Shown: in pieces, positions 1 to 54,900 of the stretch | How positions within the stretch are numbered: position 1 is the stretch's first letter | Layout: every line of letters begins with the position of its first letter | Assembly (NCBI GenBank): GCA_017499595.2 | Contig: CM038998.1 | Coordinates: 992,001-1,056,000, forward strand | DNA: 64,000 bases | Source: Psilocybe cubensis | Taxonomy: Eukaryota | Reading direction: 5' to 3' | The notes under the pieces: model-generated | What the model was told of the DNA's origin: nothing | The model's database searches: none | The model's input: the letters and a program-made list of their open reading frames with translations, nothing else | Program-made: the position numbers and the translations under genes

Positions 1-1200
1 CAACTCTGAGATTAACGCATCAGATTATCAGTATATTGAACGATACTGAGGATGACGACGCCAATTCAAGGACTTGTAGATCGCACACAAATCAATCCGA
101 TTCAAATGACGATGATTCTGATTCATGCTCTGACTCTGACTCCGATGATAGCTATAATTCTCTGGTCTCAGATAATGCAGACTATATTGACCACGATCCT
201 TTCCCTGCAAGTGTGTTCCCTATCATTCCATTTTTTACACTGTGCCGTGACATTTACTTTTATCGCACAGCGCCAAGAAAATGCCCCCCTAGCCCGCCGC
301 CTGAACGGAACTCATCGGGTACCTTCCAGACCGTGTCTCAAACCCCGCGCAAAAAGAGGATAGTTGAGTCGTTACCCACTCCCACGCGTACACCATGCAC
401 AAATAAGAAGCATATTACGTCCACGCCGTGTTCTGGGGATCCGTCGCCCAAACTTCAATCTAGAGGATACACCAGGACCCGGTGAGTGTATTTTGCCGCA
501 TTTTATCACAGATATTTGATATTTAATCCTGTGCAGTGTCCTTATGTCTGACACTGAATCGGACTGCGCCTCGGATGAGGATGAAGAGCCAGCACAATCC
601 GTTAAAGCAAACGTAGAAAGCGCTCAGATGTTTCAGCCCAAAACATGTATGAACGCAGTTTACCTGCCTCAAAGTATGTCGGCCATTTCACGATCTCCCG
701 CAGTTTCTCGGTTTTACATGATGAATATATCAGCACCGACCAAACGGGCGACGCAGAAAACATCAGCAACTCTGGCGACGCCTCAAACAGGTGAATATAC
801 ATTGCATCCGTACCTATTCTTTTCACCTATTCCACCGATCCAGATGTGGTAAGCGACCCGGAAGACGACACGCCCTTACCAGAATTGTATGAGAGATACG
901 CGTCTGGAAACGGCAGCGACGTTTGGACACCAAAATCCATCAAGCATACTAAAGGCGCATCCCAGAAGGCACTCCAGCCCACTCTTCCTCCGACCCCTGC
1001 ACCTACACCGGCGAGAAAGAAACGTAAAGCTCAGGAGGCAATCGAGTCGGACTCGGAATACGTTGACAGTGGGTTGAAAATTTACACTGACCTGTATCCT
1101 GTCTGATAGTTATTTTTTTTTTCAGGTATCTCGCCTCGAAGGTATGCACAGCGAATGGAATCGCTTCGAACTCGAAACTCTCAGCGTAGAAAAGAGTGAT
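1..1200 (+). CDS. 5'-truncated multi-exon hypothetical protein, Asp/Ser- and Pro/Thr-rich; likely paralog of the 23907-25268 gene
   Basis: ORF pieces 36..485, 544..852 and 846..1106 are separated by GT..AG introns (e.g. gtgagt at 482, gtgaat at 790). It has an acidic DSD tract followed by LPTPTRTP and PPTPAPTPARKKRKAQEAIESDSEY, resembling KKRKAEDSDSEY and PPTPAASP in 23907..24311. The frame of the last exon is uncertain. Confidence 0.55.
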
Positions 1201-11379: not shown

Positions 11380-14300
11380 TTTGCTTTGATTGGTTCCAAC
11401 TACATATTATGTACTAGTTACATTACTAAGTAATAAACGGATTGGATTGGATTGGGGTTGGATTGTGTTGAATGAATAAATGAATAGAATGTATGAAATT
11501 GAATGAATAGATGGATGAATGAATGAGTGTATGTGTGTATGCAATGCAAAAATGAAAAGATGAGATAAATGAATCAAGGTAGAACGATAGTGATAGGTTG
11601 TATCGCGCGATAGATGTGGATAGGATGAATGTGGATAGAATGTGGATAATAACAAACAAACAAACAAACAATACGGTCGTCAAAAACGGAGTAAAAAAGA
11701 AATAATTACAACCAGGACCAAGATCATCATCGATGCAATGCGTCATAAAAATGAGAAGCAAATCCGACGTGAGAGCGGTAGCATGAGCATGGAGGTGGAA
11801 ACGGGAATAAAATGATAAAAAAACCCGCGTTACACGATTAAAAAACGAGAGGAAAGGAAAGGGGGGATATCAATGGGGGAACCCGTTATAGGAAGAGGGG
11901 GGAGGGGTATGGGTATATGCAGGCAGGTATCAAATCTCGATGGGGACGAGCGGGCGGGCGGGTTGCTGATTGCTGATTGCTGATTTGCTTTCCAGGCTAG
12001 CTAGCGTCATAAAAGGTCGTTAAAAAGTCGGATCCCAGGCTCAGATGAAACTCCAGAAAGGTATTTCAAGGCTTCGAGGAGGGAAGGGGGGCGTCATCCT
12101 CTTCCACCACCACCTTCAGCAACCTCGCTGAAGGGCACACGTCCCCATCCCATACCCAAGCTCACAGCGAACGACGCCCTCTTCCTCCCCGAGTCCGCTG
12201 TAGACGGCCGCTTCGCCTTCTTCTGCCTAACAGGCGTCGCACTATTCGAATTCGAATTTGAAAGAGGAGATAGGAAGGCGGTCTGCGATGGCGACGCCGA
12301 AGCCGACGATGTCGATGCAGAACGCGATTTTGATTTTGTAGTGGGTGTGGCTGCGGTGGCGGACAGCAGTGCCGAGTTTGAATTTGAAGGTTCAGAAGAG
12401 CCGTTGGCTGACTCGACGGACGACAGGGATGTTACGCCAGACGACGATGAGCTGCTAGCGCCACCAGACACAGACGACTCGGACGAGGATATTCCCTTTT
12501 CTTTCTCCTTGTCCTTGTCCTTGTCCTTATCCTTGTCTTTATCCTTGTCCTTGTCTTTCTCCTTGTCTTTGTCCTTGCCAACCTTCCGCCTAGCACTGCT
12601 ACTCCGACTGCTAGTCCCACCATTCCTGCCACCAACAACGCCTCCCCCAGGCGGCACGAGCCCAATAAACGCCGCATTCTCCTGTGCCCGATCGCACTTT
12701 TCCGCAATCCGACACGCAGCCTCCACCGCTCGTTCCACCAACACGCGCGATCCCGAGTTCTGCGGCGTATGCGCCAGGAGATCTACACCAATTCAAGAGT
12801 CGGTTAGATTAAAGAATGAATTTCAATGAATTTTTGCCACCCGAGATGGATGCGATGGAGATGAATAGGAAAAAAAAAAAAGAAACTGACCTCGATAGAG
12901 CAGGACATAGCGCATCACCCTCTGCGTCGGCAAGATCGCGAGCTCTCTCACAGCAGGCGGCTTCTGCTTGCGCGGTACCGGTTTACCCGGGCTCGCCTCT
13001 CCTCCATTCCCCACACCACCACCACCATCGACCGTTCCCTCCAACACACGCAACGCAACCTCCGGTCCACCTCTTCCCCTCTCCCTCTCCCTTTCCCGCT
13101 CCAACTCCCTGTCCTTGCGCCCATAGATAGACATGACGCCCCCGTCGAGCCCCAACGACGCGATACTCGGCATACTCCTGCGCCACGTGCTCACCGTGCG
13201 CTTCAAAGGGCTGACAACGGGCGGCGGGTGGCTTGGCTGGAGGTGCTGTCCATAGCCATGCCCATGCCCGTGCCCATGACCAGAATGCGACGCAGCAGAC
13301 CCGTGCCCGTGGCTCGACCCCAATGCAGCAAGCGCGCTGCTCGACCCAAACGCGCCGTGTCCATGGCTGTGGTTGCTCGAGAGGTGCCCATCATCCGTAT
13401 CCACGCCGTCTCCCACTACACCAGTCGCTGCAGCAGCATGGTACTCACTCGCACCCGTACCCGCAACAACAGACTTACTCTTCCTCTTCCTCAAACCCAT
13501 CCCACCCTCCTGATTCCCACCCCCATTCTCATTCCCATCCACAAACCAACCCCCAACAACCGCACACCACCTCACATACGCCGCACCCACCTCCTCCTCC
13601 CTATCCACAAACGCCCGCGCCACACCACCCACACTCGGCCGCGCCTCCATCTCCCGCAACACCGCCGCGCTCACCGCCGCCAGCTCCTCCGCGTACCGCA
13701 GCATCAGCGGCGGCGGCGGCGTCGCCGTCGCACTCGATAACAGCGACTGCAGGTGCGCGAGGTAGTGCCGCTCGGTCAGGATGAGCTCGCGGCAGGTGAG
13801 CACGGCGCGCTGTACGGCGAGCCAGGATGGCGAGGGCGGTGGAGGATGGTGCGTGCTGGTTGTTGGACTTGACGGTGATGAAGTCGCGTTGCCCCGATCG
13901 GCACTTGAACTCGAGTTCGAGTTGGAATTCGAGGAACTCGATGACGACGAGGCAGAAGACGATGCAGGGGACGGCGAGATATCTGCGATATCCTCCCAAA
14001 TCTCCCTGCCGATTTCTCTCAACACTCCATCCGCCTCCTCGTCTTCGTCTTCATCTTCATCCCACACAGCCTCTTCCATAAAACTCCTCTCCTCTTCCAC
14101 AATCTCCTCATCCACATCCCCCCTCTCTCCTGCATGCTCCAATTCCCCTCTTCCCCCCTCCTCCTCCCTGCCCCTAACCAAACCCGCCCGACTCTCACTC
14201 CTATTCCTATTCCTCCTCTCCCTAACCCTCTCCCTCCCCCTCTCCCTCGCGCGCACCCTCTCCATCCTCCTCGTCCACCGCCCCAACTCGCGCATCCGCT

Positions 14301-17300
14301 CAAGCTCCCTAACCAGCCCCTCATCCGCAATCCCTTCATCCGTCATCGCACTCGCAAGCGTCCACCGCCTGCGCCCCAGCTCTTCCCCCTCGCTGATCTC
14401 CGCGTGCCGTCGGAGGAGCGGGGGGCGCGGAGGCGCGTGTGGGTGGGTGTGGGTGGGTGTGTGTGGGTGGGTGGGCGCGTGGGTGGGCGCGTGGGCGTTT
14501 TTGTGTGAATCCGAGTTCGAGTTTGAGTTGGCGTTGGCGCTCGAAACACCCGATGGAGCCAACTTGGACGTAGGCGACGCATTAAGCGAGATAAACGGTG
14601 TACCACTCTGAACCGCTGTCCCCACTGTCACCGTATCGCGCTTCTTCCTAAGCTTTCCACTTGCATTTGCATTCCCACTTCCACCCTCCTTCCCATTTAC
14701 ACTCTCCTTCCCCTCCTTCCCCGCCGACGTCGAAGGAAGATCAAAATCCGACTCGGATCCAAGCATAAACTTGCTGATCTTCCTCCTTTCCACCACCACC
14801 AGCGATGTTGACGACGCCGGGGGAGGGGGCGAAATAGACCGCGTATGATGCTCGATCAACGCTCGCACGCGCCCGATACCACCTCCACTGCTGCTACCAC
14901 CAACGTCCGATGAGGAGCGCGTGTGTCTGTGCGACTGTCCGTGCGCTTGTGATTGTGGATGGGGTTTGACGAGCGATGCGCGGCGTTTTCGGTTTGGGGG
15001 TTCATTTTCATCTTCATTTTCAATTTTATTTTTATTTTGGGGTGGATGTGGATGTGGATGTGGATGTGTGTGTGTGGGTGGAGGTGCGAGCGTCTACATC
15101 ATCAAGAAAAAAAGAGAAAAAGAAGAACAACGAAAAGAATCAGTTCAGCAATCGATGATGCAAAAAACATAAAACATCAAATATAAAACGGAAAACGAAA
15201 AAAGGGGTATCCCAACCCCCAATCCCACCGGAAAGAAAAACAAGCAAAACAAGCAAAAAAAAGAAAAAAAAAACTCACGACGCGCAATATCCCCTGTTTC
15301 TCAACCCCACCACCAACACCACCAATACCACCTTGCTCTCCCTCTCCCTCTTTCTCCTTTTCCTTCCCTTTTCCACCCAACCCAACCACCAATTCCCCAT
15401 TCCCATTTCCACTCCCATTCCCATTCCCATTCCCACTCGGACTAGAACCAGAAGAACCAATCCCCGTAGTCCACCTCTTCCACCTCGCAAACGACGACGT
15501 CGATGACGTCGAAGATACCGTTGAGGGCGGTGTCGTTATCAAAGTCGAGCCTGACGCCGATGTTGACGCCGATTCAGAGGTAGACGCCTCGGACCCCAAA
15601 TTGCGCTGTAAACTCGGGTGTGCATGTGCATGCATCTTCGTCGTAGTCGTCGTCGTATCCATTGAAGGATGCGAATGAGAATTATGATGAAGATGAGAAG
15701 GAGAAGGAGATGACGACGAAGAAGGAGGAGGAGGAGGAGGAGGAGGAGGAGAAAGGCCACTTTCGCGTACACGATACGTATCCGGGGATATCTGACCCAA
15801 TGACGAAGTTTGTGATGCTGATGTCAACGCTGACGATGAGGATAATAATAAAGATAAAGATGAGGATGGTTCCGCAGTCGCAGTCGTGGACGAGGACGGG
15901 GTGCTAGTGCTGTTAGTAGCAGTAGCAGTAGTAGCAGTAGCAGTAGTGCCAGTAGCAGAAGCAACAACAACAGCGCTCCCATTCGCACTCCCATTCGCAC
16001 TCGCACTAGGGTTCAAATGAGAACTAGAACTAGAACCCGAGTTGGACTCGGACGCACGCCTTCTCGACGGGCGGAGGCTAAACGTCCTCGCAAGCAACGA
16101 CGCGCGCTTCGAACTCTTCCGCGTCTGCGCCTGAAGCTGAAGCTGATCGACAACATGCGGCGGCGGCACATCAGACGCACTTATAAACACCGCGCTATTC
16201 GGTGTGCCTGGCATTCTAGTCGCTGACGACGACGCTGAGGAGGGGGAGAGGGAAGAGGGGGAAAGCGAAGACGGCGAAAATGAGCGCGCGGTTGCTGTTC
16301 CCGTACCCAACGACGACGACGCGGAGACAGCGCGCGGGGTGACGAGGACAAATGTGCTTCCCGAGCTCGGCGTGCCGCTGCTTGCACCGCTCGCGCCTAT
16401 CGTAACGGTATTAGGTGACGTGCTTCCCGCGCTCAGATGAACAAAGGACGTCGAGGACGAGGATGGGGACGCAGATGTAGAGGAGGAGGAGGAAGGGGGC
16501 TGGGTGTGTATAGGCGGCGGGAGGTGGTGGCGCTTTTTTGAGAGTTTGGCTGGAGACGCAGAGGTAGAGGCAGAGGGAGAGAAAGCGGTGATGGTATCCG
16601 CTGAATCGGTGTGTGCGTGCGAAGGGGTATATGCACGGTGGTGGTGGTGGTGGTGGTTATAAAAAGAGGAAGAGGAAGAAGAGGAGGGGTGATGGTGAGG
16701 GGTATCGGTATTGGTATTAGCAAAAAAAAATGAGGGCCCAGACCGTTTACTTGAATGGGCTTTGTGTTCGGCCGGTGGCTGAGGCTGGTGTCGCTGGGAC
16801 AACGCAGCGTCCTGACTAGCTTGGTCGTGGTGGTGGTGGTGGTGGTACAGACCCAAGCATTCTGACTGTGAAGCAGCGGGGGATTGTGGATGCGAGCAAG
16901 GCGTGAGGACGAGGTATGGCTCATGGGTGTCATCATCGTCGTCGTCATCGCCATGACGCGCACGCGCGGCAGGTGCAGCGTGGGTGCTGGTCTTGGGCGT
17001 GCTCGCGGTCTGCATGTGCGTGTACGTGACTCCGGGACCTATGCGCTCTTCATTATGTTGCCGTCGCGAGGCAGACGGAACGGGCCCTCCGTGGTTTATA
17101 TTAGAAGAAGCAGAATTATTACGGTGATGACGTCTGCTTCGGCTGCTCCTGCTGCTACCTGACCTGCGTTTCTTCAGCTTGTTGGAGGGGGACGATGGCG
17201 GGGACGGGGACGGGGAGGAGGAGGAGGAGGAGGAGGATGCACGGAAGGCCGCCGGGTCGAAAATTGGCTCGGCGGGAAACGCCAGGGGCAGCAGCATCGG

Positions 17301-20300
17301 TGGCGGACTGGGTGGGTTGCGGCGGCGTCGTCTGTCCTTCCTACTCGTCTTTCCCTTGACGCTGCTCACGATAGAGGACACGCCCGAGGAGAGGAGGCTG
17401 ATGCTGGAGAAGGACGAGGCGACAGAGGAGGCGGTGGTCGTCATCGATGCGGAGGACGGGGCGCGGGCGAGCGGGTTTTTGGAAAAGCGGTATGGGTTCG
17501 GGTGGGGGAGGAGGAGGGAGGGTGAGAAGGAGGACCATGTCGAGGAGGACGACCGCGACGACGACATGGGGGAAAAGAAGAACAAGGGTCAGCTCAGCTC
17601 AGAATTACGCCAAGGCTATGTATAGGAGTCCAACTTGCCTGTCATTTAATTTATTTTCTTATCCCTTTATGCACTCAATCCGTTATAAACCTCCAACTTC
17701 AAAATTGACGTCATTTCACACTTGTGTTTTTTTCACCTTTTACGCTATAAAATGCCGGCTCTGGTTAGATTGCGGGCCAGAGTGCTACAAGTCACTTTAC
17801 CTTATCTTCACATAACATCGATAACTCGATCTTCCCCCAAATGAACCGCAAATCCTTCCTTCTTTTTCGCCTCGGCTTCTCCTGCTCGGCACCCAACCAA
17901 CACCACCGCCCCCATCCAACCTACCACATCTCTCTCGAAATGAACAAGGTACATTCATACCCAAACACAACTTAATTAATTCTCCTTTTCCCAGGTCCCC
18001 TATGATTCGAATCGCACACCCACTCGCAATTCTCAGACTCCTGCTTCTCGATTCCTCCCTCTTCCCTTCTCCTTCTCTTCTCGTACTGGCCCTGCCTCGT
18101 TCTATCCTGTTGTATCTGTCAAACCCCAACTGAAAACCTGCTGAATATATCCGAATCTTCATCCAGCCGAGCCGAGTTTCTGGGAACTTGGAAAGACAGC
18201 CGTACTTTTGACTGATGCTGCTTAGTGCTACGTTGTTTATGTGCTATGCTCTATTTTCTGTCATGCCTCGAGGGTCACGTCCAAGTCTGAATTAGGCACT
18301 GCCTGGCTGGCAGCACCAGATGGACACAAACAAAAACTCCCTTGTCGACATCTCAACACTCAACTTGAACGTCCTCGACACTCAACACCCAACACCACTT
18401 CACGAACTAGCTCCAATTCCAATACCAAACGCCCAACCTCAACCTCCCAACCCACCCACCCACATCCTAACTTCCCACCCAACCCGCCAGATGTCATGTG
18501 GCGTATCGCATCGCATCGCAGCGTATCATATCGTATCGTATCGCATCGACAAGCCTCAAATTCTCAAATTCTATTTCTCACAAAGTCAAAACGGTGGCAA
18601 ACAGCCACCGCCGTTCGTCTTATCCCTATTCTTGGATTATCCCGGTCTTCAAGTTACTTTTATCTCATAATTCCCATCCCATCCCTTAAATATCTTCATC
18701 CTCACCTTCACCTTCACGTTCTTTAACCATGTTATTTAGTAACCCAGCACAGCTTCAAAGGTCGAACTATGCATACAAACCCAAACCTCGAACGCTCAAA
18801 GTTATGCAACAACCAGTGGGGCAGAGGACAACGTCATCGGCCGAGCTAGGGTCATCTTCCAGTACCTCGTGCTCGAGCTCGAGCTCAAGTCGAGGGTACA
18901 CGTACGCGGTCGCCGTCGCCGTCGCAGTCAAACATCCCAAACATCCCAAACAGAAACAGAAACGGACATAGAAACGGGCACAGAAACGGCCACAAAAACA
19001 AAAACAAAAACTCACCTGAACGCACTTGAACACACGATAAAGGAACCACACACACGTCCAAGAAACCACGATCCCCAATCCCCAATTACCGACCCAGGAC
19101 CCAGGTCTCTCTCCCCGTGGGTTGTTCAGCACAACGCATACGCGTATACAATGATACATCGAAACGTACTTGAACAAAAAAAAGGATTTACACACGTCCA
19201 AAAACCGAGGATCCCAATTCAACGACCCAACGACCCAAACACCCAAAGTCTCTCCTCAGCCCAATGGGGCTCCCCAGCACGCGTATACACGCATATATAT
19301 CGGGTTTAAATTTTCCTTTCACTTCTTACCGTTTTTTATTGTCAATTCACACTTTCCAGCTCCAAATCTCCAGCTCCAGAACACAACAACCTCATAGGAT
19401 ACGGTGACCCTGACCCCAAACAACACCGACGTTTGACAACACAATACAAATACAGCGTTACAGTAAAGTAACACAAAACCATCAAAATCCGTACTTACGG
19501 CGTAAGGCGCGTATAATAATTATGATACATATTTTACAATGTGTTAACATTCAATGTTCTCTGTCCAATATTTTCTCTTTTGTTTACACTTCCACTTCAT
19601 CCACTCCTAAACAACCCATGTCAAGGTATACCCCTCCCCTGCCCCCCTCTCCCGAACAAAGCATTGAACAAAGCGTTAAACAACCTCATCCCCGTACCTA
19701 AAACACCCCCTTAAATCCAAAAAATCGACCTGCGCTGAAAAACCAAACACAGCACCCTTGAGCTCATTTTGTGCGTTTTTATTTCATCGCCTCCCTTTCA
19801 TATGATCCCTTTCCTTTTCTTCTTCTCCCATCTCCCCTCCTCTCTTCCTCTTCCTCATCGTCGTCATCAAGAGGCAAAAAAAAGCTTCTACCAGAATATA
19901 TAGACTCGTTCGGCGCGTGCATACCAGTGTGCGTATGTGCGTGCGCTTGTGTGTGTGTATGCGTGGGCGTATGCGTATGCGTATGCGTATGTGTATGCGT
20001 CGACATGGGCGCAGGCGCAGACACAGGCGCAAGCGCAAGCTTGGGCCGCGTACGCGTATGCGTGCCCACATGCGCGCGCGTTCTAGATACAGACCTCCGA
20101 GCCTCCCTCGCCTCATCCTCAATCAGCGGCGCCGTCGACGCGCACGTTATTGGCAATGTCGATGTCAATGCCAATGGCGAAGGCGCAGGCGACGACGCCC
20201 AAGCCGAAAGCAAAGGCAAAGTCGAAGGCGAAGGTGAAGGTGATGGCGAGAGCGACGACGCCCAAGCCAAAGGCGGCGTCCAAAGCGAAGGCGAAGGCGA

Positions 20301-21300
20301 AGGTGAAATCGCCAACCTCGAGGGTTTCAATCCGGTGCCAGTCGATCCAACCTCGATCGGCGGCAAAGGCAGCGGCTTCTCACCTAGAACTCCCAGTCTA
20401 CCACCTGCACGGGCACGGGAACCTGCGCCCACCCGCTGGGTGTCCGCATCAGTGTCCCACATCACCTTCGCCTCCTCTTCCACGAACGACTCGCGCAGAC
20501 CGAGCATGATGCGGGACGTCGCGATAGAGCAAGGGGCAACCATCAGCCTATGTGTACGCGTGCGGCGCGGCGTGTGTGCGTGGTTTGCGTATGCGCGTGT
20601 TTGCGTGTTTGCGTATATTGCGCGTGCGTCATGGTACGGTACGATTACGATATAGCCAGTTCGTAGCGGACATGCAAAGAAAAAAACCCAATAAAAAGTC
20701 AGATTTCCCATCTTTAAATCGACCGGCCCAATGCACAGAGTACAAATCAGACACATACGGAGTGTATATAGCTGAAATATTAATCTATCAAAATATATAT
20801 CAGCCTTCAGTCACTTCGGAGGATTCAAATGAAACAAGAGGTAGTTAAATCTCAAAGCTTGAGCTTGAGACCCCGCACAAAAAGAAATTGTAGCATCATA
20901 CTGGAAATAGTACCATAACACTCACCTCTGGTACGTCAGTGAGAAATGACCCGATCGACGTCAACCCGACGGAGCCTAGGTATCATTGAACAAAAGAGCA
21001 GATTATGTCAGTATTTCATGTATCTCAAAATTTTCATTCCACGCGACTCGAGAACCGAGAACCGAGAAGCGAAAAATGAAAAAATGAAAAAACGAAGCAT
21101 CGAATCGAGAATCGAACATCGATATTCGAGAATGCCGCTGTACGACACCCTTAATAAAACATGAGGGGGGTGGGGGAGATGGGGAGCACGTCAAACAAAA
21201 CTTACACGCCACACTAAAGTAGAGTACGCCGCCGCTATATTGATATCGAATTTTAGTTAGTACAAAAAGATGTAGTGGTGGTGGTGGTGGTTCCAGACCC
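11380..21300. repeat. Microsatellite / low-complexity-rich domain
   Basis: Dense (gga)n, (gtg)n, (tagcag)n, (cccatt)n, (tccttg)n, (tgcgta)n, (atcgt)n and (aaac)n tracts occur in coding, intronic and intergenic sequence and are largely absent from the rest of the window. Confidence 0.85.
12094..17567 (-). CDS. Dbl-homology (RhoGEF) domain protein with very long low-complexity regions, about 1,700 aa
   Basis: Exons about 17567-15279, 15093-12891 and 12783-12094 join in frame (ILRV|TLAPPP; LLYR|DLLAHTP). DH-domain motifs RELILTERHYLAHLQSL and ELAILPTQRVMRYVLLYRDLLAHTP are present. An upstream exon cannot be excluded. Confidence 0.8.
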
Positions 21301-22601: not shown

Positions 22602-23906
22602 AGTCACCTCCTGCCTTGGCTTATGGGTCGTAAAAGTCTGAGCTGCCTGGCAGCTTGAGAATCGAAAGAGCGGAACGATGGTGATGGCTCCATTAATTCT
22701 CCAGAGCGCATATATGTGAAGCTAATCTGAGAGAATCCTTCTGATCGTGAAGGCAAAGATATCTGATAGTTCTTTTAGCATCAATAGATAGTCAGCAGGC
22801 CATTTTGTATCTTGGTGACCAGAGTGAATGGAAATGGTTGTGCAGATGATTCCGTGATCAGGCGACATTTGAGTGATTGACAGTCAACCAGCGAAGAATC
22901 AAAGAATCAGTGAATGACTCGACAACTCTGAAAATTTATGCCACGCTTGAAGGACAGAGAAAGAGGCGCATATATCCAATAGTAGTCGACAAAAACAACC
23001 CAAGGAAACCATAGAGAGTATTAATTCTGAGCAAAGCAAGCATCGTCCCGGAATCTCGGGATGGAGGGTGCTTGATGATGATCATGACTCTTCATATATA
23101 GATGCTGTGCTGCCTCAGTTGGTTCCTATCCACGAACATAATTGGTATTCCCCACAATCGTGGGCGCCGCGGCATTCGTATATGCGAGCATCAGACACCG
23201 TGAAGGCACGGAATGTCTGGTGAGTTCGTGATTCGAAGAATTCCTGTTACAACCTGTATTCATAAACACCATCCAAAACGGATTGATGAACACTTACGCA
23301 AAGGCAATGGGAACTCAACCAGCTCCAATATGTATGACCAAAAGGCCTCAGAGTACTCAGAAGAGTCGCAGCATGCTCCGTGTGAGAATATTGCTAGAAA
23401 GGACTACAAACACATCATAGCGTTCTATGATAGTGTTCGATATGTGTCGCTAAGTTGGAGGATGGCGCAAAAGATGATGTGCCGAACAGCAAGAATTGTG
23501 GGACTGGACATTATGAACTGATGAATGCGCAATAGAATGGTAAAATCAAAGATAAATCACAACATCAAGAAGAACGAAAAAAATCACCGTCGTTCTGAGT
23601 CACTGGCGGAGTTGAAAGATCGACATTAGCTAACAACGGTATTAAACTCTTCGATGAGAGTCTCAGAGATCTCTATAGCAAGAAAAAGCATATGGTAGAT
23701 TAAACTGGTACCAAATTGATATAAAGTTTTCTTCGCTACTAACTACTACTATATACAGTGATTTACTGTTTAAACAAATCATATAACTAGGACCAAGCTT
23801 TGCATATGTCGCCGATATCGGGAAGGTAAGACTGACAGACAAAAGGGGGTGAGGTGTCGCGTGGAAAGAGTGGAGTAGGTCAGTCACAAGAAGAGGCGAG
23901 GAAAAG

Positions 23907-25268
23907 CTACGAAAAAACCCCATCGTGAGTACAGGCAAGAATTTTACTAAAAGTTGGAAATATGTTCATCGGTGAAAACTCCAAGTGAGCAAAGAAATCA
24001 CTTACATCGTCGGATTCTACTTTGACAACGACTTTACGTTTCACCACAGGCGATGCAGCCGGGGTCGGGGGGCACTGCGGCATACACGTGAATCCCGAGT
24101 ATTCAGAGTCGCTGTCCTCTGCCTTTCTCTTCTTCAATCTGGGTGAAGTGGAGGCTGGATGAGCCTGAGTGCCTTGTAGGACAGTGTTTACCACTGTCAG
24201 AGATGGCCCAAAAAGGTCAGATGATTCTTTCTTTATGTCTTTTACCGAAACCTCAGCTGAGCGTGATGAGGTTTGCCGAGAGCGTACTGGGGTCTGTTCA
24301 GGGGTAAGCAACCCAAGTGATGGTCCTAATTAACGAGTAAGCATCAAATTCATAGAATAGTAAATCCAGATGCTCACTATGATCTGCCTCGTTTTTAAAT
24401 AATTTAACTTTTTCAAACGATTTCTTCGGTGCTAAAAGAGACACAGATAAGGAATACTTCCCAGGACAAAAATGAAGGAGCAGACTTTGAGGAGGTGATA
24501 CTTGACGAATTGGAAAGCCGTTACGATCGAACTTGTCGGACTCTAGGTTGTCGGGGATTGCCAACATCACTTTGTGTTCTCCGTCGATTGACTCAGACTC
24601 CTCCTCATCATCCGAGTCGGGATCTTCAATTCATCTCATAAATCAGTGTCTTATATTACGAAAAGTAGCAACTCACATTTATGCTCTCCCCAATTTCCCG
24701 TCCTGGAGGCTTCATCAACAAATGCTTCTAGGGCCATAAAGAAAACATCATACTGTAATTCGACAATGTTAGAGGTTTGAAGCGTAGACTCAGTTATAAA
24801 GGGAACGGATACTCGCATGTTTTTTGAATTCTTCGTCTCTGGAAAGTAGCCAGATACTCCAAGAAGGATCTCTACATTCCCCAAGACGTTGTCCAAAATG
24901 TTTCTTGCCGAAAGGAACCACGAAATCGCAGAAGTGTTTATCAACTTTGTTTATAAGCCCCTCACGGTATTTCTCCATCGCCTGATGGAACTCGTACTAG
25001 ATGCGAATATCAACCAAAGCCATAAATAGGAGTCAAAACTGAAACAAAGGGGATAAACGTACCCGCTTGCTGGCTTCCCGGCAAAAGTTGAGGTAGTTGT
25101 AGAACGGTACCTCGTTCAGGGGCTTTCTCGAATGTACACCAAAATCGAGAATCCAACCTCCAGCTTCTTCCCCAAAACCCAATAATACTTGTTTTTTGGA
25201 TCAACCTTCGCATTTTTGCGGACTCTCTGGTTGACATCGGATAGGACAATAGGAAGGGACGACATCAT
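23907..25268 (-). pseudogene. Multi-exon gene with two FG-x-H-type motifs; apparent frameshift (pseudogene or sequencing error)
   Basis: MMSSLPIV...YYWVLG shifts frame at the G/T homopolymer 25170-25177 to EEAGGWILDFGVHSRKPLNEVPFYNYLNFC|YEFHQAMEKYREGL..FVVPFGKKHFGQRLGECRDPSWSIWL. An acidic tract and a KKRKAEDSDSEY basic tail follow. Confidence 0.6.
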
Positions 25269-25855
25269 ATGCTTTTCCTAGCAATTTAATCTTTCTACAG
25301 AACTGCCAGAAAATTTGAAGGTCCTCGGAAGATTTACAGCGAAATCTTCGAGAAAAAGTCGGATAAAACGATGCTTTGACTTTAAGGCCTAACACCTTGT
25401 CGTAAAGCAGCGTCTAGGTATCGCGGGTTGTGGTTGCCAGAAAAGGATCGCGATTCGCGAACCAAGCCGTCTCGGACCTTTTGTGCAATTCAATCTCCGA
25501 CGAACTCAGTCAGGGGACTTCAATTTTGAACTTCAACACATCAAGGCAAGTTGGGCTCGGAAAGAACGCAGTGGTCTAATATATCTATGACCTTTCATTT
25601 TGAAGATAAATCATCCGTAAATCTTAATAATTACAAAAATCCATGTTTCACAAAATTTGACTTGAATTACGGTGCCCAGTAGCGTTATTGAAAATATTAG
25701 GGCATAAAAGTACATGATGTTTAGGCGTTAGACATGATTCGACAGATTCAAAGTGGTCAAGAAGTATGGGTAAAAAGAGACTTCACTTTCTTTTAATAGA
25801 TCTCAAGCTTGGATCCGAGTTGTGCACGCGACATCTTCAACTCAGAAAGATAAAT

Positions 25856-26486
25856 TCAAATAGCCCGACGCAGGCGCTTGAGAGGGAAGCCGTCTAGCAT
25901 AAAGGAATGAGACAATGAATGTTGATTTAAGCAGACAAGGGGAAAGAGGCGCGCACCAAGGCCAACTCTGGTATAAGTTCTCTTACGCATCTCTACATTG
26001 CTCTCCAAAACCTCTTGGGCCTGCCTTTTTTTGGATGGGGATGTGCGCTCCAATGATGAGTATGCGTGAGCTGCTTGGTGGCCAACCATTGGACCCAAGC
26101 CCTATCGTTGACATGTTTTAAAGGCACGCCCCTATGTTGATTGCCCAAGGGAACCAGAAATTCGTCGTAATTTTCATCAAGTTGGACCAAGAGTCCCTCT
26201 TTATATCTCTTAAAGGCATCTTGGAAACCATCCTACGAATAGTATATCAATGTAAATTGGGTAAGCGGAGACAAAGACAGGCGCACCGCAATTCCATTGG
26301 TTTATTGGGCTCATGGTGGTTGCAAGTTGAAAAAGGAGGAGTGAGAAACGATGAGACACATTGACATCGATTTCATTTGCATATGGAGGGCATGTTTGCT
26401 TCCGAGACTCGTCGAAGGCACTGTAGATGGCGGAAGCTGAATTCAGGAAAACACGCTGAGAGGACGACACGCTGAGGACCTTTCAT
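25856..26486 (-). pseudogene. Degenerate tandem paralog of the FG-x-H motif gene
   Basis: The exon FQDAFKRYKEGLLVQLDENYDEFLVPLGNQHRGVPLKHVNDRAWVQWL aligns with FHQAMEKYREGLINKVDKHFCDFVVPFGKKHFGQRLGECRDPSWSIWL. SPSKKRQAQEVLES lies in another frame. There is a 1-nt insertion near 26460 relative to the 29780 copy. Confidence 0.65.
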
Positions 26487-26615
26487 GTCCATTGTAAGAA
26501 GTTGAGCCCAGTCTTTTGAGTTCCTATTAAAATCAACCTAAAAATCAAAGATCGTGGTCACCGTCCAAGTCGAGAACATCGTCCTTTAAGTCAAGCGTGA
26601 TGCGATCAATAATCT
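26389..26615. repeat. Dispersed direct repeat copy 1 (copy 2 at about 29684-29900)
   Basis: gcatgtttgcttccgagactcgtcgaag, aagttgagcccagtcttttga and gtgatgcgatcaat occur in both copies. Confidence 0.9.
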
Positions 26616-27549
26616 GTTCAGTATCATTCACGGCATGCTGTTCGTCACCCTCCTGATTTGCTTCCCATACCCTTACCTGCCTTAACGAGTAGCTTTTCTA
26701 GCTGTTTGTCTCGCTAGTGTGCGTTCCAATTCTTATATCACAAGCCTCATATGGCCGACCGAAACTGACTATCACGACGGCGTATAGTCCAGCCTCTAGA
26801 CAACTTGAACTCATATGAAGCAACTGAAAGAACTTGTAAAGAACTTGATTCTGTACCAGTACTCTTTTAATGCATGATGTACCAACCACATATCGCCCTC
26901 AAAGTCCGCCTTCGCAGAGTCACCAATACTCAGTTACGCACTATACCCCGGAGATTGATCATGACTGCTGTACGCCTGGAATCTTCAAGTGACCTTTACA
27001 CACTTGCACTCGCTCTACACCAGAGACTAATTACCTTCCTGCACCCGCTTATACATTGAGTTGGTGTCCTTGCAGGCGTGGCTGTTTCCGTGGGCTACAC
27101 GATTCGTGTACCCTATCGCGCGGTGGAAGCAATGTCTGTCGCAGATCAGATTGTAGGTATCATTGCTGCTGAATACTCCGATATCAAACTTGGCCTTCGC
27201 TCGAGATGGGGAGGTGGCTCGTTCCGTTCGAGACCAAGAGCGGGAAACTTTTCCAGTGGAAGTCTAAAGAACTATCGAACAATTCTGTTGGTATGTGTAT
27301 ATTCATTTCTCTTGGTTCCGTTTCATGTTGACCTGGTTAGATATCAATGGAGGTGGGGAGTTGTTGAGTACCATCTTGAAATCCGGTAAGTTATGTGCAA
27401 GGGGTCTATCGCGTTCATCGCTGTTCATCGAACGATTCAATTGGAATTTCCATTTATAAACTACATAGAAACATAATGATGGGGGTAAAAACGATCTGCA
27501 AACGCCCCTACATAATACTAACTAGTAGCAACAAATGCGCAACAGCATC

Positions 27550-29256: not shown

Positions 29257-29780
29257 CTATGTCCGCTGTGACGTTGTTCTCTGAACCTGTGCCTCCCTCG
29301 GCGACTCATATGACATTATTTTCCGGCAAGAATTCGAACACTTACCATTCAACACACTAGTGTAGAACTTCCATAAAAATATAAGGCTCGACTCGATCCG
29401 AACCCGAAGTTCCAATTTGCCGTGTGTAAACCACAATGGTATTGTATCATCCAGTTTTGGGAGATATGTCGAGAACCTCATGTTGCAGGTTAGGCCGCGA
29501 TCGAGGGTTGCTTCTGCGATGAACCAATTGTTGGGCAAGGAAGACTTTTCAAAGGCTTTCGGAGCTATAGTGTACGCCACACGTCTGTCAAATGCACGGA
29601 ATTGAAGCGCGACTTTGGTCCGTAACGGCGCGACACATCCACGCTGTGCGTAAAGCGCATGTAGACAGAATGTATCATATGGCCGCATGTTTGCTTCCGA
29701 GACTCGTCGAAGATACTTTGGAAGGCGGAAGGTGGGTTCAGCAAGACATGCTGAGGGACTACACGCTGTGTACCTTTCAT
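29257..29780 (-). pseudogene. Hypothetical or degenerate ORF sharing its 5' end with the 26486 copy
   Basis: MKGTQRVVPQHVLLNPPSAFQSIFDESRKQTC matches MKGPQRVV/QRVFLNSASAIYSAFDESRKQTC. No visible homology downstream. Confidence 0.4.
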
Positions 29781-29900
29781 ATCCGTTCCAGTAACAAGTT
29801 GAGCCCAGTCTTTTGAACTCCTAAAATCGACCTAAAATCGAATCGCATTGTGGTCTTGAAGGAACATCGGTCATTCAAGTCAAGTGATGCGATCAATCTA
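29684..29900. repeat. Dispersed direct repeat copy 2 (copy 1 at about 26389-26615)
   Basis: Same shared blocks as copy 1. Confidence 0.9.
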
Positions 29901-29992
29901 ATCTTAGTTCATCTTTGGGATCCAAGATTGATTACTGTAGACATTCACTATTTTCACCAACAACCGCATTCTGAGTACCCGAAATCTTTGAA

Positions 29993-30898
29993 ATGACGCC
30001 TACAATACCGCGCTGGAAAAGGATTATTGAAACTGCTCTTGCTGAATACAAAAACCAAACAGGTACGTTGTCCACTTTCGAATCGCCCTTGGGAGTGTTG
30101 CCTCAATCTAGCGACGGGGCTGGAACTCGCGCTCAGCGCTCACCATTCGAGGTATCGCGCTCGTCTGATTAAAACAATGTTAATTTTCCCTTTATATTAC
30201 CAGTAATCCAGATCGCTACTACGGACAACACTAGACCGACCCCCCGAGTACGATCCCACATATTCCGTTCTTTTCTCTCCCACCCATCCCACCCATCGCT
30301 ACCACTCCTATTGAGCTCAACGGACATCCGTACCCCAAAGGTCAGCCAAATAGCAAACCACAAAGCTGTCGAAATCGCATGGTGGATCGACGGCACACAG
30401 CAGCAATTCCGCATACTAGCGAATGTGTACATCGTCCCTGAGCCCAACCACCCGTTACTTGCACCCTTCAGGAAGCAGCTCGAGGAATCCAAATTAGAAG
30501 CAGGAGATGCTATCTCTCTTTACCCTTCTACTGAGGAATGGGAATCGCAGCGCAAATCCATGTTCGCGTCGATGAGCGCACATATGCGCGCGTCATGGTG
30601 CCGGCCCACGCCCGGCTCACCACTCTCCCTTCATGGCGGTCCCGAAGCCGTTAAGAACTGGCCAACACGCGTTGTGCAACCTGACAGGGAAAAAATGAGT
30701 CCCGAGGAATTTAAGGAAGCTCAAAAAAATTGGGAGCTAGCGTTGAGCAACTTCGCTCTGGTGGTCATTGATCCCTATGAGGTCGATTTTGTAGATTTGG
30801 GGGGCGCTAAAGGGAAGTTAGATCGCCGATGGCTCTTCGTAAAGGCAAGGGAGGGAGAATATGGCTGGAAATGGACAGAGGAGGAACTTGTCCCCTGA
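29993..30898 (+). CDS. Pyridoxamine 5'-phosphate oxidase-like FMN-binding split-barrel protein
   Basis: MTPTIPRWK..|VIQIATTD..PRVRSHIFR..STDIRTPKVSQI..VEIAWW..QQQFRI..MRASWCRPTPG..ALSNFALVVIDPYEVDFVDL..EEELVP*. One intron at 30063-30203. Confidence 0.85.
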
Positions 30899-51912: not shown

Positions 51913-54900
51913 TTAAGAGTAAATACTGTCTTCGTCAACGGCTCTGAGAGCTCTTAAAAATGACGGAGATATGGTTTTCGCATCGTCAAAGATGCGCAGT
52001 GATGGTGCAAGGCCTCCCGGGGAGGCTGCCGCTTTGATATGACAAAGGTCGAGGAACGCCACGGTAAAAGCAAATTTCGGCGAGTCACAATATGCGTACG
52101 ACGCTTTGATCTGTTTGAGTTGTTTTTTGAGGAGGAAGATCCCTTCAATCGGTGCTGCATAAGCCTGGGTACATTCCAACATCAAATCTTCGTTTTTGGC
52201 CTTTTTGAACGGTTTGCCTTTAACAGGCGACTGTTTTTCTTTCGCCTTCGCACAGGCAATTATCCACTTGTCTTTCGCCTTGTTGACGTGTGCTCGGATG
52301 TTACTCAACTCCTCCAAGAATTTTGGCATTTTTTGAGATTCTTTTGCCTCAAGTGCAAATTTGAACATATCGTCATATGGACTTCTTAGGTCTTTGTCCT
52401 GGTTGTCGTATTTCGAAGGCCTTTTCGCTTCATACCGCTCGAAGAGCTCATCTGCTTTCTTCTTAGCGGCGTCGTTGAGGAGGAAAAGTATGTCGCGGTT
52501 AGGTGCCTTATCCTTGAGAGCTTGGATATCTGGAGATGTGTTGCTGTACTTCGCAAGGTCCTTCGCTTTGATACCCTGTTTTAGTCTATGACCCGTCTTG
52601 CTGGCATCCAACAACGTCGTGAATCTGATGAATTATTGTCAGTATATCCTTCAAATTCATAAAAAAAAGGGTACATGTATGCCAGGCGAATAGTTTTTGA
52701 GTCATGGTAGCCATACGCGATCGCGGCATTCTTGTGCATCATGTTATAGAGCCCAACCTCAGAGTCGTTGAGATTGGCCAGGAGATGAGCCATAAATGCC
52801 TCGTTTGTCGCGCGTGGCGAAATATATTTATTATGACAGAAGTCGCGCACGCTCTGGACTTTAGAGCCTGATTCGAAATTGTCCTTCATGAAATCCTTTG
52901 GTTGCTCAACCAAAGGCGTATTTTTGAACGGCGCGACAATGTCCTCGGCCCATATCACAATGGATTGATCTTCAGCACCGGTTCAGATATTTATCTGCCA
53001 CCAGACCAAATTGTAACCATACCTCCGTCCATATCTGACAGAATTCATGAGCGAGAAACTATTATAGACAGAAATTTCTGTACATACCTCCATCAGAGAG
53101 TTGATTGGCCAAACTTCTATATCCTTTGATCGGCAAAACGACAACATCCTGAAACAATTCCAACTCCCTATAGTAACAAGCAGTTACCTAGAAATCGAGG
53201 TTAACCATTGTCAAAGCATGGAAGATCAAACTACCTTCTTCATGTCGGAGCCCAACATGATCGGATACCGACCAATCTGTTGCGTAACTGTGTAACTATA
53301 GCAGTGCATACCCACAAATTTAACCCACAATTACTGGCCCTTCTAGGGTATGCTTAAGCATGCTTGATGCTGGGTCCTTACGAGGTTTGGAGAACTGATA
53401 AAAAATCTCGTCTTCTTCGAGAACTCCGAAATAATCTATAAAAGGGTACAATTAAAGCATCGCACAAGAGAACACCAACAAGTGACCGGACCTGGAGCAA
53501 TATATGCGCCAAGGGATTCAGGAATCGGTATACGATACTTTTGTATGGAAGTGCGCATGGCACTATCGACGATCCATCGAATCTTGTCGTACAAAAGTTC
53601 CATTTCAGCGGGGTGAAACCCAGCCTGAATAAGTTCAGCAGCGACTTCATGAAGGGCATATGGTGCTAACAAAAGTATTAGCAAAGGTAGAAAAAAGCAA
53701 GAAGTTCGTTCGCTTACCGCCACTGTACATATTCCTGCCTGTATTCAAGGTAGGTCCATCATCAGCACCTTCAACACCATCCTCATCGGCATCGATGTCA
53801 TCATTATCACGGCCCCAATCGCGTCCTTTCAAACCAAGTGCACGGTTAAGAGCAACTGAAATTCGCTGGGTTCTAGACCCAGAAACATTGCCGCATTTAT
53901 TAATGGCGTCCCATAAGAAAACCATTGCGTGTGGTCTATCCCAGTCCATGAGCGGTGCAACATCTTCTTCCAGTCCTTCTTCCATAAGCCGTATAAGTGT
54001 CTCGGCAGGAACTCCGTTGTTAAAAAGGTTTACAATGCTCTGTTCGGATAGACATATAGAAGAAGAGGGACGTGAAGGGCCGAGAAGGTCGAAAATCCTA
54101 TGGGAGCGATCAAACTCGCTATACTTGATCTTGTTCTGAGAATTTCGAATCCAAATCTTCGGTTCGTCAGAGGTATCGTCAGGATGTAGAATCCACAAGC
54201 CCTTTGCACCAGCAATACGTCCTTGTACGGCTGCAGGAAGTGCTTCGTAATCCATGTGCTTGACGATGGCATGTAAAGCTGAATGGTTTATATAACCACA
54301 TCCATCAGTCATTAATTTTTCGGCCGGAGGATTGGGTTTTCCTTCAGGCCAGTCATCGGTGGCTGAAATTACAGCAATCTGGTTAGCACAGCGCGCGGAT
54401 GATTAGAATGTGGACGTACTAATGTCATCTATGAAGATTATATTTTTTGCCTGGAATTCCAGGGCAGGTACCGAATTCGACAAACCAATAGCAAAACGCG
54501 TCGCATACTTGGTGATTGTCTGGAAAGAGAAGACGTTGTCACGATAGCATAGTTGCATATCAGATCACTAACCTGGTTGTAATTCTTGGGTTCTGCGAGA
54601 GGATTGTGCCAATTGATAAATTTACAAAATGGCATGCGATACTGATCACCAAAGAAGTCCATGGATAAGCGTCCATAGTTCTGGTCAGTTTCAACCATGT
54701 AAAGTGAACCTTCTTTAGAGTGGAAAGGGACAAAGATTCGACCACATAGCACAAAACTTCTCGTGAGAAACTTTACCACTTGATGACTTTCTTTCTGCAG
54801 AGTTTGTTCAGGAATACGAAGCTGAAGAAACCTCCTTGAACCATAGAAACGAGCAAAACGATGAGATCGGCGTTTCTCCATGGGCTCGAGAATAATCTTA

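Follow-up and report, generated by a model that had tools for sequence, protein, structure and literature searches.

We analyzed a 64,000 nt stretch of the Psilocybe cubensis genome (GenBank assembly GCA_017499595.2, contig CM038998.1, positions 992,001 to 1,056,000 of the forward strand; hereafter the window, in whose numbering all positions are given), whose minus strand carries a seven-exon gene together with a truncated paralogue (the relic) situated 0.7 kb upstream. The gene is a member of an Agaricomycete protein family in which two tandem modules, predicted to pack into a single domain, are followed by an acidic tail, and this domain is probably a remote homologue of the DUF3820/ExoX C-terminal module. 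A first-pass annotation, made from the letters of the window, had pointed to three motif strings, an acidic tract and a TP/SP-rich stretch with a KKRK patch, and all of them were found at the claimed places on the minus strand: ILDFGVHSRKPLNEVPFYNYLNFC in the open reading frame (ORF) 25033-25200, FVVPFGKKHFGQRLGECRDPSWSIWL in ORF 24790-24996, FLVPLGNQHRGVPLKHVNDRAWVQWL in ORF 25993-26232, the acidic tract in ORF 24298-24630, and the TP/SP-rich stretch with KKRK in ORF 23907-24329.

The gene model was built from sequencing-run contigs. Minus-strand contigs of runs X10 and X12 skip six stretches of 52–66 bases, which have GT..AG ends apart from one GC..AG, while DNA contigs of runs X6 and X8 continue uninterrupted through the same six stretches; this indicates that the gene is transcribed and spliced in the species. 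Runs X10 and X12 are not recorded as RNA, and their RNA nature was a guess that the spliced contigs bear out at this gene. The intron-containing structure proposed earlier thus holds, with six introns. The coding sequence, 25268..23944 on the minus strand, comprises 325 codons from the ATG at 25268 to the TAA at 23946-23944, and is open when one base missing from the window is read as X. Exon 1 carries the core of module 1 (W-I-L-D-F-G...N-F-C, 25081-25155) and exon 2 the core of module 2 (F-V-V-P-F-G-K-K-H...I-W-L, 24847-24924), whereas exons 4-6 (24006..24623) encode the acidic tract, Ser/Thr/Pro-rich disorder, and KKRK and KRK basic patches. In the tails of the fungal proteins, KKRK-type patches adjoin S-D-S-E sites.

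Features of the locus and of related stretches, with positions counted from the first letter of the window.
Feature	Position	Strand	Evidence or content
Gene, transcribed region (7 exons)	23772..25440	-	Spliced RNA contigs of runs X10 (1308 letters) and X12 (822 letters)
Exon spans	25440-25063, 24996-24817, 24752-24677, 24623-24486, 24431-24377, 24324-24006, 23946 to ~23772	-	Spliced RNA contigs
Exon 1, coding part	25063..25268	-	Start ATG ATG at 25268/25265, then module 1
Frameshift site	25173..25178	-	G-TTTT-G in the window, G-C-TTTT-G in runs X10, X8 and X6
Exon 2	24817..24996	-	60 codons, phase 0 at both ends; second helix of module 1, and module 2
Intron 2	24753..24816	-	64 bases; GC..AG, donor in place of GT; joint common to both RNA contigs
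Exon 3	24677..24752	-	Last helix of the folded domain, Y-D-V-F-F-M-A-L-E-A-F...
Exons 4-6	24486-24623, 24377-24431, 24006-24324 (introns 4 and 5 between)	-	RNA contigs and translation
Stop codon TAA	23944..23946	-	First codon of exon 7
Truncated paralogue (relic)	25993..26232	-	Family hidden Markov model, E 9.3e-18; tblastx
DNA repeat upstream of the relic	26380..26620		Second copy at 29676-29911, 78% over 252 bases; not module-coding
Possible 3′ half of a further paralogue, unverified	1..1106	+	Acidic, TP-rich ORFs

A profile built from exon 2 and the relic (A1) was searched against 1.84 billion representative proteins and retrieved 71 proteins at an expect value (E) ≤ 0.001, with 7 at E ≤ 1e-10 and none at E ≤ 1e-30. 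Inspection of the sequences led us to judge 62 of the 71 fungal-type. The nine set aside were six dinoflagellate-type repeat proteins (P0001, P0002, P0010, P0049, P0058 and P0070, of which P0001 and P0002 are Symbiodinium by name), a 2783-residue Verrucomicrobiota protein (P0013), and two proteins without a name, P0057 and P0040, the second of which is a repeat protein. The family alignment was composed of the 44 members having one clean hidden Markov model (HMM) stretch together with the window gene, with 17 fungal members having split HMM stretches, and P0050, left out; the motif conservation among fungal homologues that the first-pass annotation had expected holds in this alignment. The 62 fungal-type proteins share a common architecture: a proline-rich start, a W-Y-Y-G-x-x-A-G-G lead-in, module 1 (F-G-K-[YH]-x-G...Y-L-x-W-C) with its helix (F-x-x-A-x-x-x-Y-x-x-G-L), module 2 (F-x-V-P-F-G-x-K-H-x-G-K...C-R-D-K-x-W-x-x-W) with its helix (P-x-F-F-x-A-V-x-x-W-L), and an acidic tail of very variable length, which in most members is preceded by an N-P-R...R-D-I-G-E-L-L segment after the domain. 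The same family includes Psilocybe cyanescens PPQ79437.1, Coprinopsis cinerea CC1G_03975 and Coprinopsis marcescibilis TFK19598.1; these Agaricomycete relatives have in common with the window gene the lead-in, modules 1 and 2, the following helix and the acidic tail, while the window gene and P0003 lack the N-P-R...R-D-I-G-E-L-L segment and the tails cannot be aligned.

Fourteen of the 15 fungal-type members looked up are named, all as ‘hypothetical’ or ‘uncharacterized’ proteins, and come from Psilocybe, Ramaria, Hypsizygus, Crepidotus, Coprinopsis (three), Coprinellus, Athelia, Phlegmacium, Mycena, Schizophyllum (two) and Rickenella. An Agaricomycetes lineage was checked for three of these named species, and the remaining named members are taken to be Agaricomycetes as well. 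The nearest relative of the window gene is P0003 of P. cyanescens (38% identity over 132 residues). The family HMM, built from the 44 members without the window gene, gave the spliced protein a score of 128.6 bits (E 9e-42) over HMM positions 19-146. Among 2,506 ORFs of the window its matches were exon 2 at E 4e-20, exon 1 (ORF 25036-25200) at E 7.8e-7, and the relic, with the next best ORF outside the gene and relic loci at E 1.5. The matches of exon 2 and the relic lean on the family search, since these two had retrieved the family; exon 1 played no part in finding it, and its match is therefore independent. A word-index search with exon 2 against longer proteins gave 27 candidates, none of which was scored, and six of 65 members matched phrog_3628 in PHROGs, an entry without an assigned function. 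No paper on the fungal family appeared among the literature listings that were searched.

The relationship to known modules was evaluated with Pfam and with profile comparisons. PF12843 (QSregVF_b, formerly DUF3820) was matched by 11 of the 71 family members and PF20600 (ExoX-like_C) by 9 (E ≤ 0.01). When 20 fungal relatives were scanned singly, at cut-offs of E 1 for a first set and 0.01 for a second, P0011 (25.5 bits) and P0034 (23.6 bits) lay above the 22-bit cut-off of PF12843 on module 1, and P0028 reached 21.9 bits against it on module 2. Nine other fungal members gave sub-threshold module 1 matches to PF12843 and/or PF20600, those to PF12843 falling at the same profile positions, and against PF20600 (cut-off 26.5 bits) the best fungal relative scored 16.8 bits. 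No other confident domain was found in the 20 members. Profile comparison by hhalign aligned the whole family (A3) with Escherichia coli YpeB and its relatives (A4) at 94.0% (E 1.4e-7, score 49.9) over 30 columns on module 1, a comparison made without shuffled controls. For each of five comparisons of single modules, 40 shuffled-column controls were run: module 1 aligned with YpeB at 97.1% (score 47.5; highest control 21.5), module 1 with module 2 at 96.7% (35.5; 10.1), module 2 with the Symbiodinium repeats at 93.4% (28.3; 14.1), module 1 with the same repeats at 90.2% (24.5; 11.9), and module 2 with YpeB at 72.0% (25.6; 20.0). The YpeB alignment is shallow (83–100% identity); at least 120 relatives were found with YpeB as query, and those listed are all 86–100% identical to it. 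Used as a single sequence, the window protein aligned with the Symbiodinium repeats on module 2 (70.9%). Proteins made of PF20600 repeats, the best of which match PF20600 at E 2.6e-34, are retrieved by the exon 2 and relic profile itself (E 4e-16 to 5e-10). The profile likeness to DUF3820 and ExoX-like_C suggested by the first-pass annotation was hence recovered at the level of the family, with two members above the cut-off and 94% in hhalign to YpeB.

Compared with YpeB, the fungal modules have a similar core motif, h-h-P-F-G-K-[YH]-x-G-x-x-[LI]-x-x-[VL]-P-x-x-Y-L-x-W, and the same order of strand, loop, strand, helix and helix, with module 1 reaching 94–97% in hhalign. The core P-F-G-K-[YH]-x-G-x-x-[LI]...Y-L-x-W was compared with the YpeB sequence. 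The window modules keep it in outline and depart from it at several positions: module 1 reads D-F-G-V-H-S-R-K-P-L-N-E-V-P-F-Y-N-Y-L-N-F, with V, R and F in place of K, G and W, and module 2 reads P-F-G-K-K-H-F-G-Q-R-L...W-S-I-W-L, with one residue extra. YpeB differs in being a single, stand-alone bacterial module of 72 residues, whereas the fungal gene has two fused modules, introns and a long disordered tail. The ExoX C-terminal module (PF20600), F-G-K-Y-R-G...D-P-x-Y-L-R-W, resembles fungal module 2, F-G-K-K-H-x-G...C-R-D-[KP]-x-W-x-x-W; in ExoX, however, the module follows a DnaQ-type exonuclease and is dispensable for catalysis (PMC3753628), whereas the fungal proteins carry no catalytic domain. 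The Symbiodinium proteins P0001 and P0002 and their look-alikes resemble the fungal family in being eukaryotic and in repeating the same module in tandem, with no enzyme domain attached; these dinoflagellate proteins differ in having repeats of ~57 residues, with up to nine matched stretches, in place of two diverged modules in one domain, and in lacking an acidic tail. They end in a diverged repeat and are another enzyme-free eukaryotic use of the module.

The fold was modelled by AlphaFold2 from the 65-row alignment A3 on P0020 of C. marcescibilis (192 residues), which is 38% identical to the window gene over 120 aligned positions. The model had a mean predicted local distance difference test (pLDDT) score of 84.1, with residues 30-155 above 90, and a predicted template modelling score of 0.73; both modules are packed in it into one domain closed by a long helix, and each module runs in the order strand, F-G-K-[HY]-x-G loop, strand, Y-L-x-W helix and long helix. 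The first ~150 residues are thereby predicted to form one compact domain of two tandem ~50-residue modules. The order of secondary structure in an AlphaFold model of YpeB, used as a control, equals that of each fungal module. Among the predicted viral structures of BFVD, the best match of the fungal model was a pithovirus protein (E 7.2e-3), and several matches covered ~50 columns with a root mean square deviation of 1.7–3.4. The fungal and YpeB models had 21 targets in common among the best 50 of each, and nine of the top 10 targets of YpeB were within the top 50 of the fungal model; the common targets include proteins named ExoX-like C-terminal domain, Rad52/59/22 and type I restriction-modification. 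All listed neighbours in the ESM Atlas belong to PF20600/PF12843 clusters (features 0.78–0.82, TM 0.36–0.50), and such clusters are present in Oomycota and Streptophyta. The viral neighbours shared with YpeB are indirect evidence for the structural likeness that had been anticipated. No counterpart of the two-module domain was found among solved structures. A sequence search of the PDB with the family profile gave acidic-tail matches only, besides a weak match of profile positions 6-76 to human ZAP (7kzh, E 0.023, W-Y-W-K-N-E-S-G-T-W), whose alignment covers the W-Y-Y-G-x-x-A-G-G lead-in with module 1 and which was taken as chance; a PDB sequence search with YpeB gave one marginal match (E 0.035) and no clear relative of the module. 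ExoX itself was crystallised only as residues 1-167, in which the module is not included and activity is kept (PMC3753628).

Taken together, we consider it likely, with a probability of roughly 0.8, that the gene is a transcribed, seven-exon member of an Agaricomycete family whose two-module domain is a remote homologue of the DUF3820/ExoX C-terminal module. Several observations weigh against this reading. The exon ORFs of the window had no match to PF12843 or PF20600 even at E ≤ 10, in a scan that was made on single ORF pieces and in which HMMER filters drop most matches above ~0.1; on seven such pieces the only match was a weak one to LCD1, on the tail. Because the window exons fall below the Pfam thresholds, the gene is to be regarded as a remote homologue and not as a scored member. 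The single window sequence aligned with YpeB at only 0.2% in hhalign, the YpeB model had a pLDDT of only 70.2, and the ESM Atlas scores were all below the tool's own bar, so that the Atlas neighbours count as a lead; moreover, Foldseek and the Atlas also use sequence and are thus not fully independent of the profile evidence. The gene is also broken in the window, where the frame from the ATG ends after 50 codons, and the missing base may be a real allele or an assembly error.

We regard the finding as solid but moderate. Automatic annotation already shows the module in eukaryotes, with clusters in Oomycota and Streptophyta; what is new is that a known module is here duplicated, enzyme-free and class-wide in mushrooms, and mostly below the Pfam threshold. 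Bacteria, phages and giant viruses commonly carry the DUF3820/ExoX-tail module, in every case next to enzymes that act on DNA or RNA, and an expressed, class-wide fungal family with the module doubled and enzyme-free provides a clean setting to ask what the module binds, with CC1G_03975 as a member in the genetically tractable mushroom C. cinerea. Agaricomycete ‘hypothetical proteins’ become a defined family with a confident domain model, and the gene model of the locus is corrected by six introns, one GC donor and one frameshift.

The frameshift was compared with the versions of the gene in runs X10, X8 and X6, the X12 contig being without exon 1. Relative to the window, these runs carry 25177 A>G plus one base inserted behind 25173, and, as the window lacks one base just before module 1, none of its ATG-started frames reaches the domain. 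With the X10/X8 differences applied, the frame reads M-M-S-S...K-Y-Y-W-A-F-G-E-E-A-G-G-W-I-L-D-F-G. X6 has an extra one-base insertion at 25228, near the start codon, by which the start moves to the ATG at 25237, ten codons later in the same frame, and module 1 stays in frame in all three versions. X6 also carries a 19-base duplication at 24425, spanning the intron 4 acceptor and the start of exon 5. Within the species, the X10 contig showed 4 differences in 463 domain-coding bases versus 17 in 512 tail bases. Among the 19 coding differences listed for four runs, beside which there are 49 further differences outside that list, 16 fall in exons 4-6; the tail has 12 non-synonymous and 4 synonymous differences, and the domain two synonymous ones and the indel-linked change. 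With few differences in the domain versus many, mostly non-synonymous, in the tail, the domain looks constrained and the tail free to change, as judged from these sequence comparisons, and the fast evolution ascribed to the family by the first-pass annotation fits the tail.

Of the competing explanations, the one that survives best, at a little short of even odds, is that the gene is a pseudogene in the window genome, the missing base being a real strain allele, the gene dispensable and the locus decaying. The early end of the window frame suits this explanation, as do the truncation of the adjoining relic and the N-terminus differing between strains, with X6 starting at another ATG. In addition, a C is lost before the T run while the length of the run is unchanged, which is less typical of a homopolymer assembly error. 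On the other hand, the frame is kept in the three other versions, the remaining coding sequence of the window is open over 290 codons, within-species changes in the domain are few, and the missing base may, after all, be an error of assembly.

With respect to function, we tentatively propose a non-catalytic nuclear adaptor, a reading to which we would give considerably less than an even chance. In such an adaptor, nuclear entry would be conferred by the basic KKRK-type patches, the two-module domain would serve for docking, either to nucleic acid or to an enzyme that processes DNA, in the manner presumed for the module where it is fused to DnaQ-type exonucleases, RNase H, Rad52-like and restriction proteins, and the acidic tail would act as a fast-evolving, probably phospho-regulated effector or spacer. 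Elsewhere the module is found in the company of RNase_T, RNase_H, Rad52_Rad22, a type I restriction-modification protein and DnaQ; these nucleic-acid-enzyme partners, the lack of any other confident domain in the fungal proteins and the KKRK patches together favour the nuclear adaptor. We infer the nuclear, nucleic-acid-linked role only from the KKRK patches and the company kept by the module in bacteria and viruses. Two points tell against it: to our knowledge, no function is known for the bacterial module itself, and ExoX residues 1-167, without the C-terminal module, keep activity (PMC3753628). The latter result suits an accessory docking role, in which the two-module domain would be a pure protein-protein docking unit that, for example, recruits a repair or replication factor with no direct nucleic-acid contact. 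This is about as likely as the nuclear adaptor; no partner is known for it, and contact with phosphate would likewise be in keeping with the K/H/R residues conserved in the F-G-K-[HY]-x-G loops.

A broader scenario, which we hold to be a long shot, is that Agaricomycetes took up an accessory module of DNA enzymes, of the type seen in bacteria, phages or giant viruses, and made from it by duplication a new two-module domain, which then spread as a fast-evolving family of nuclear proteins used in genome conflict or DNA transactions. If it were true, the proteins might, for instance, steer or block nucleases, recombinases or mobile elements, and the intact alleles, the frameshifted allele and the truncated relic would be the trace of a conflict.

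The first-pass annotation had further described birth and death within the family and listed four copies or fragments in the window. The first of these proposals fits the truncated relic and the frameshift in the window copy. What the relic retains is module 1's second helix and the core of module 2, F-L-V-P-L-G-N-Q-H-R-G (26083-26160); its start coincides with the intron position at which exon 2 begins, and it has neither the module 1 core upstream nor the following helix, and has a stop at its end. By tblastx, the exon-2 block (24811-24990) shares 33% identity with the relic block (26047-26226) over 60 residues, and the RNA contigs do not cover 25446-26600, in which the relic lies. Among the four listed copies, the gene and the relic were borne out, whereas 29.3-29.9 kb shares only the DNA repeat and 1-1200 only a tail motif. 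In 29.3-29.9 kb no family match was found by tblastn or HMM, and only the ~240-base DNA repeat is common; in a stricter DNA comparison, 23700-26600 matched one other place in the window, 26380-26543 against 29676-29837 at 82%. This dispersed repeat of ~240 bases (78–82% identity) has no recognised coding content, and one copy lies just upstream of the relic. The ORFs at 1-1106 end in a P-P-T-P-A...K-K-R-K...E-S-D-S-E-Y motif resembling the C-terminus of the gene, and its local alignment with the gene tail (z 5.3) was reached by none of 200 shuffles. No core-domain match was found there by tblastn or the family HMM, and in phmmer searches against the family the tails, the gene's own included, did not outscore their shuffled versions. 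From the tail motif, 1-1106 may be the 3′ half of a paralogue beginning before the start of the window.

That the family is the cargo of a mobile element or virus, or was recently taken from one, would explain the copies, the relics and the fast change, and the module is indeed common in phages and giant viruses, the ~240-base repeat flanks the relic, and copies or fragments lie within 3 kb. We nevertheless consider this origin highly unlikely, as Pfam found no adjoining transposase, integrase or viral gene on 17 window ORFs, the six introns of the gene are spliceosomal, and the occurrence of the family in at least four Agaricomycetes orders points to old vertical descent. Least credible of all, and very improbable, is that the likeness to DUF3820/ExoX-like_C is a convergent short motif in an unrelated orphan fold: the matched stretch is only 24–30 columns, the window's own sequence fails Pfam and no fold match is significant by itself, but two family members exceed Pfam's curated cut-off, all five profile comparisons exceed all 40 shuffled controls, the window-derived profile retrieves PF20600-repeat proteins, and the 21 shared viral neighbours and the equal strand/helix order point the same way.

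Pfam on the 17 window ORFs recovered only Pyridox_oxase_2, TPR_9, RdRP and the weak LCD1 match. Two ordinary neighbours are among these: a pyridoxamine 5′-phosphate oxidase-like gene lies at 30173-30898 on the plus strand (PF12766, E 3.3e-18), and a fragment of an RNA-dependent RNA polymerase at 53647-54402 on the minus strand (PF05183, E 3.7e-28). Two long open frames on the minus strand, 12823-15093 and 15177-17588, encode 756 and 803 residues without a Pfam match, in a stretch with a G+C content of 54–59% versus 43–50% for the window. At 19762-20810, long frames on both strands, which are probably not genes, overlap microsatellite-rich sequence with C-V-C-V and H-T-H-T runs, and a strong GC skew of -0.34 was observed at 18-20 kb.

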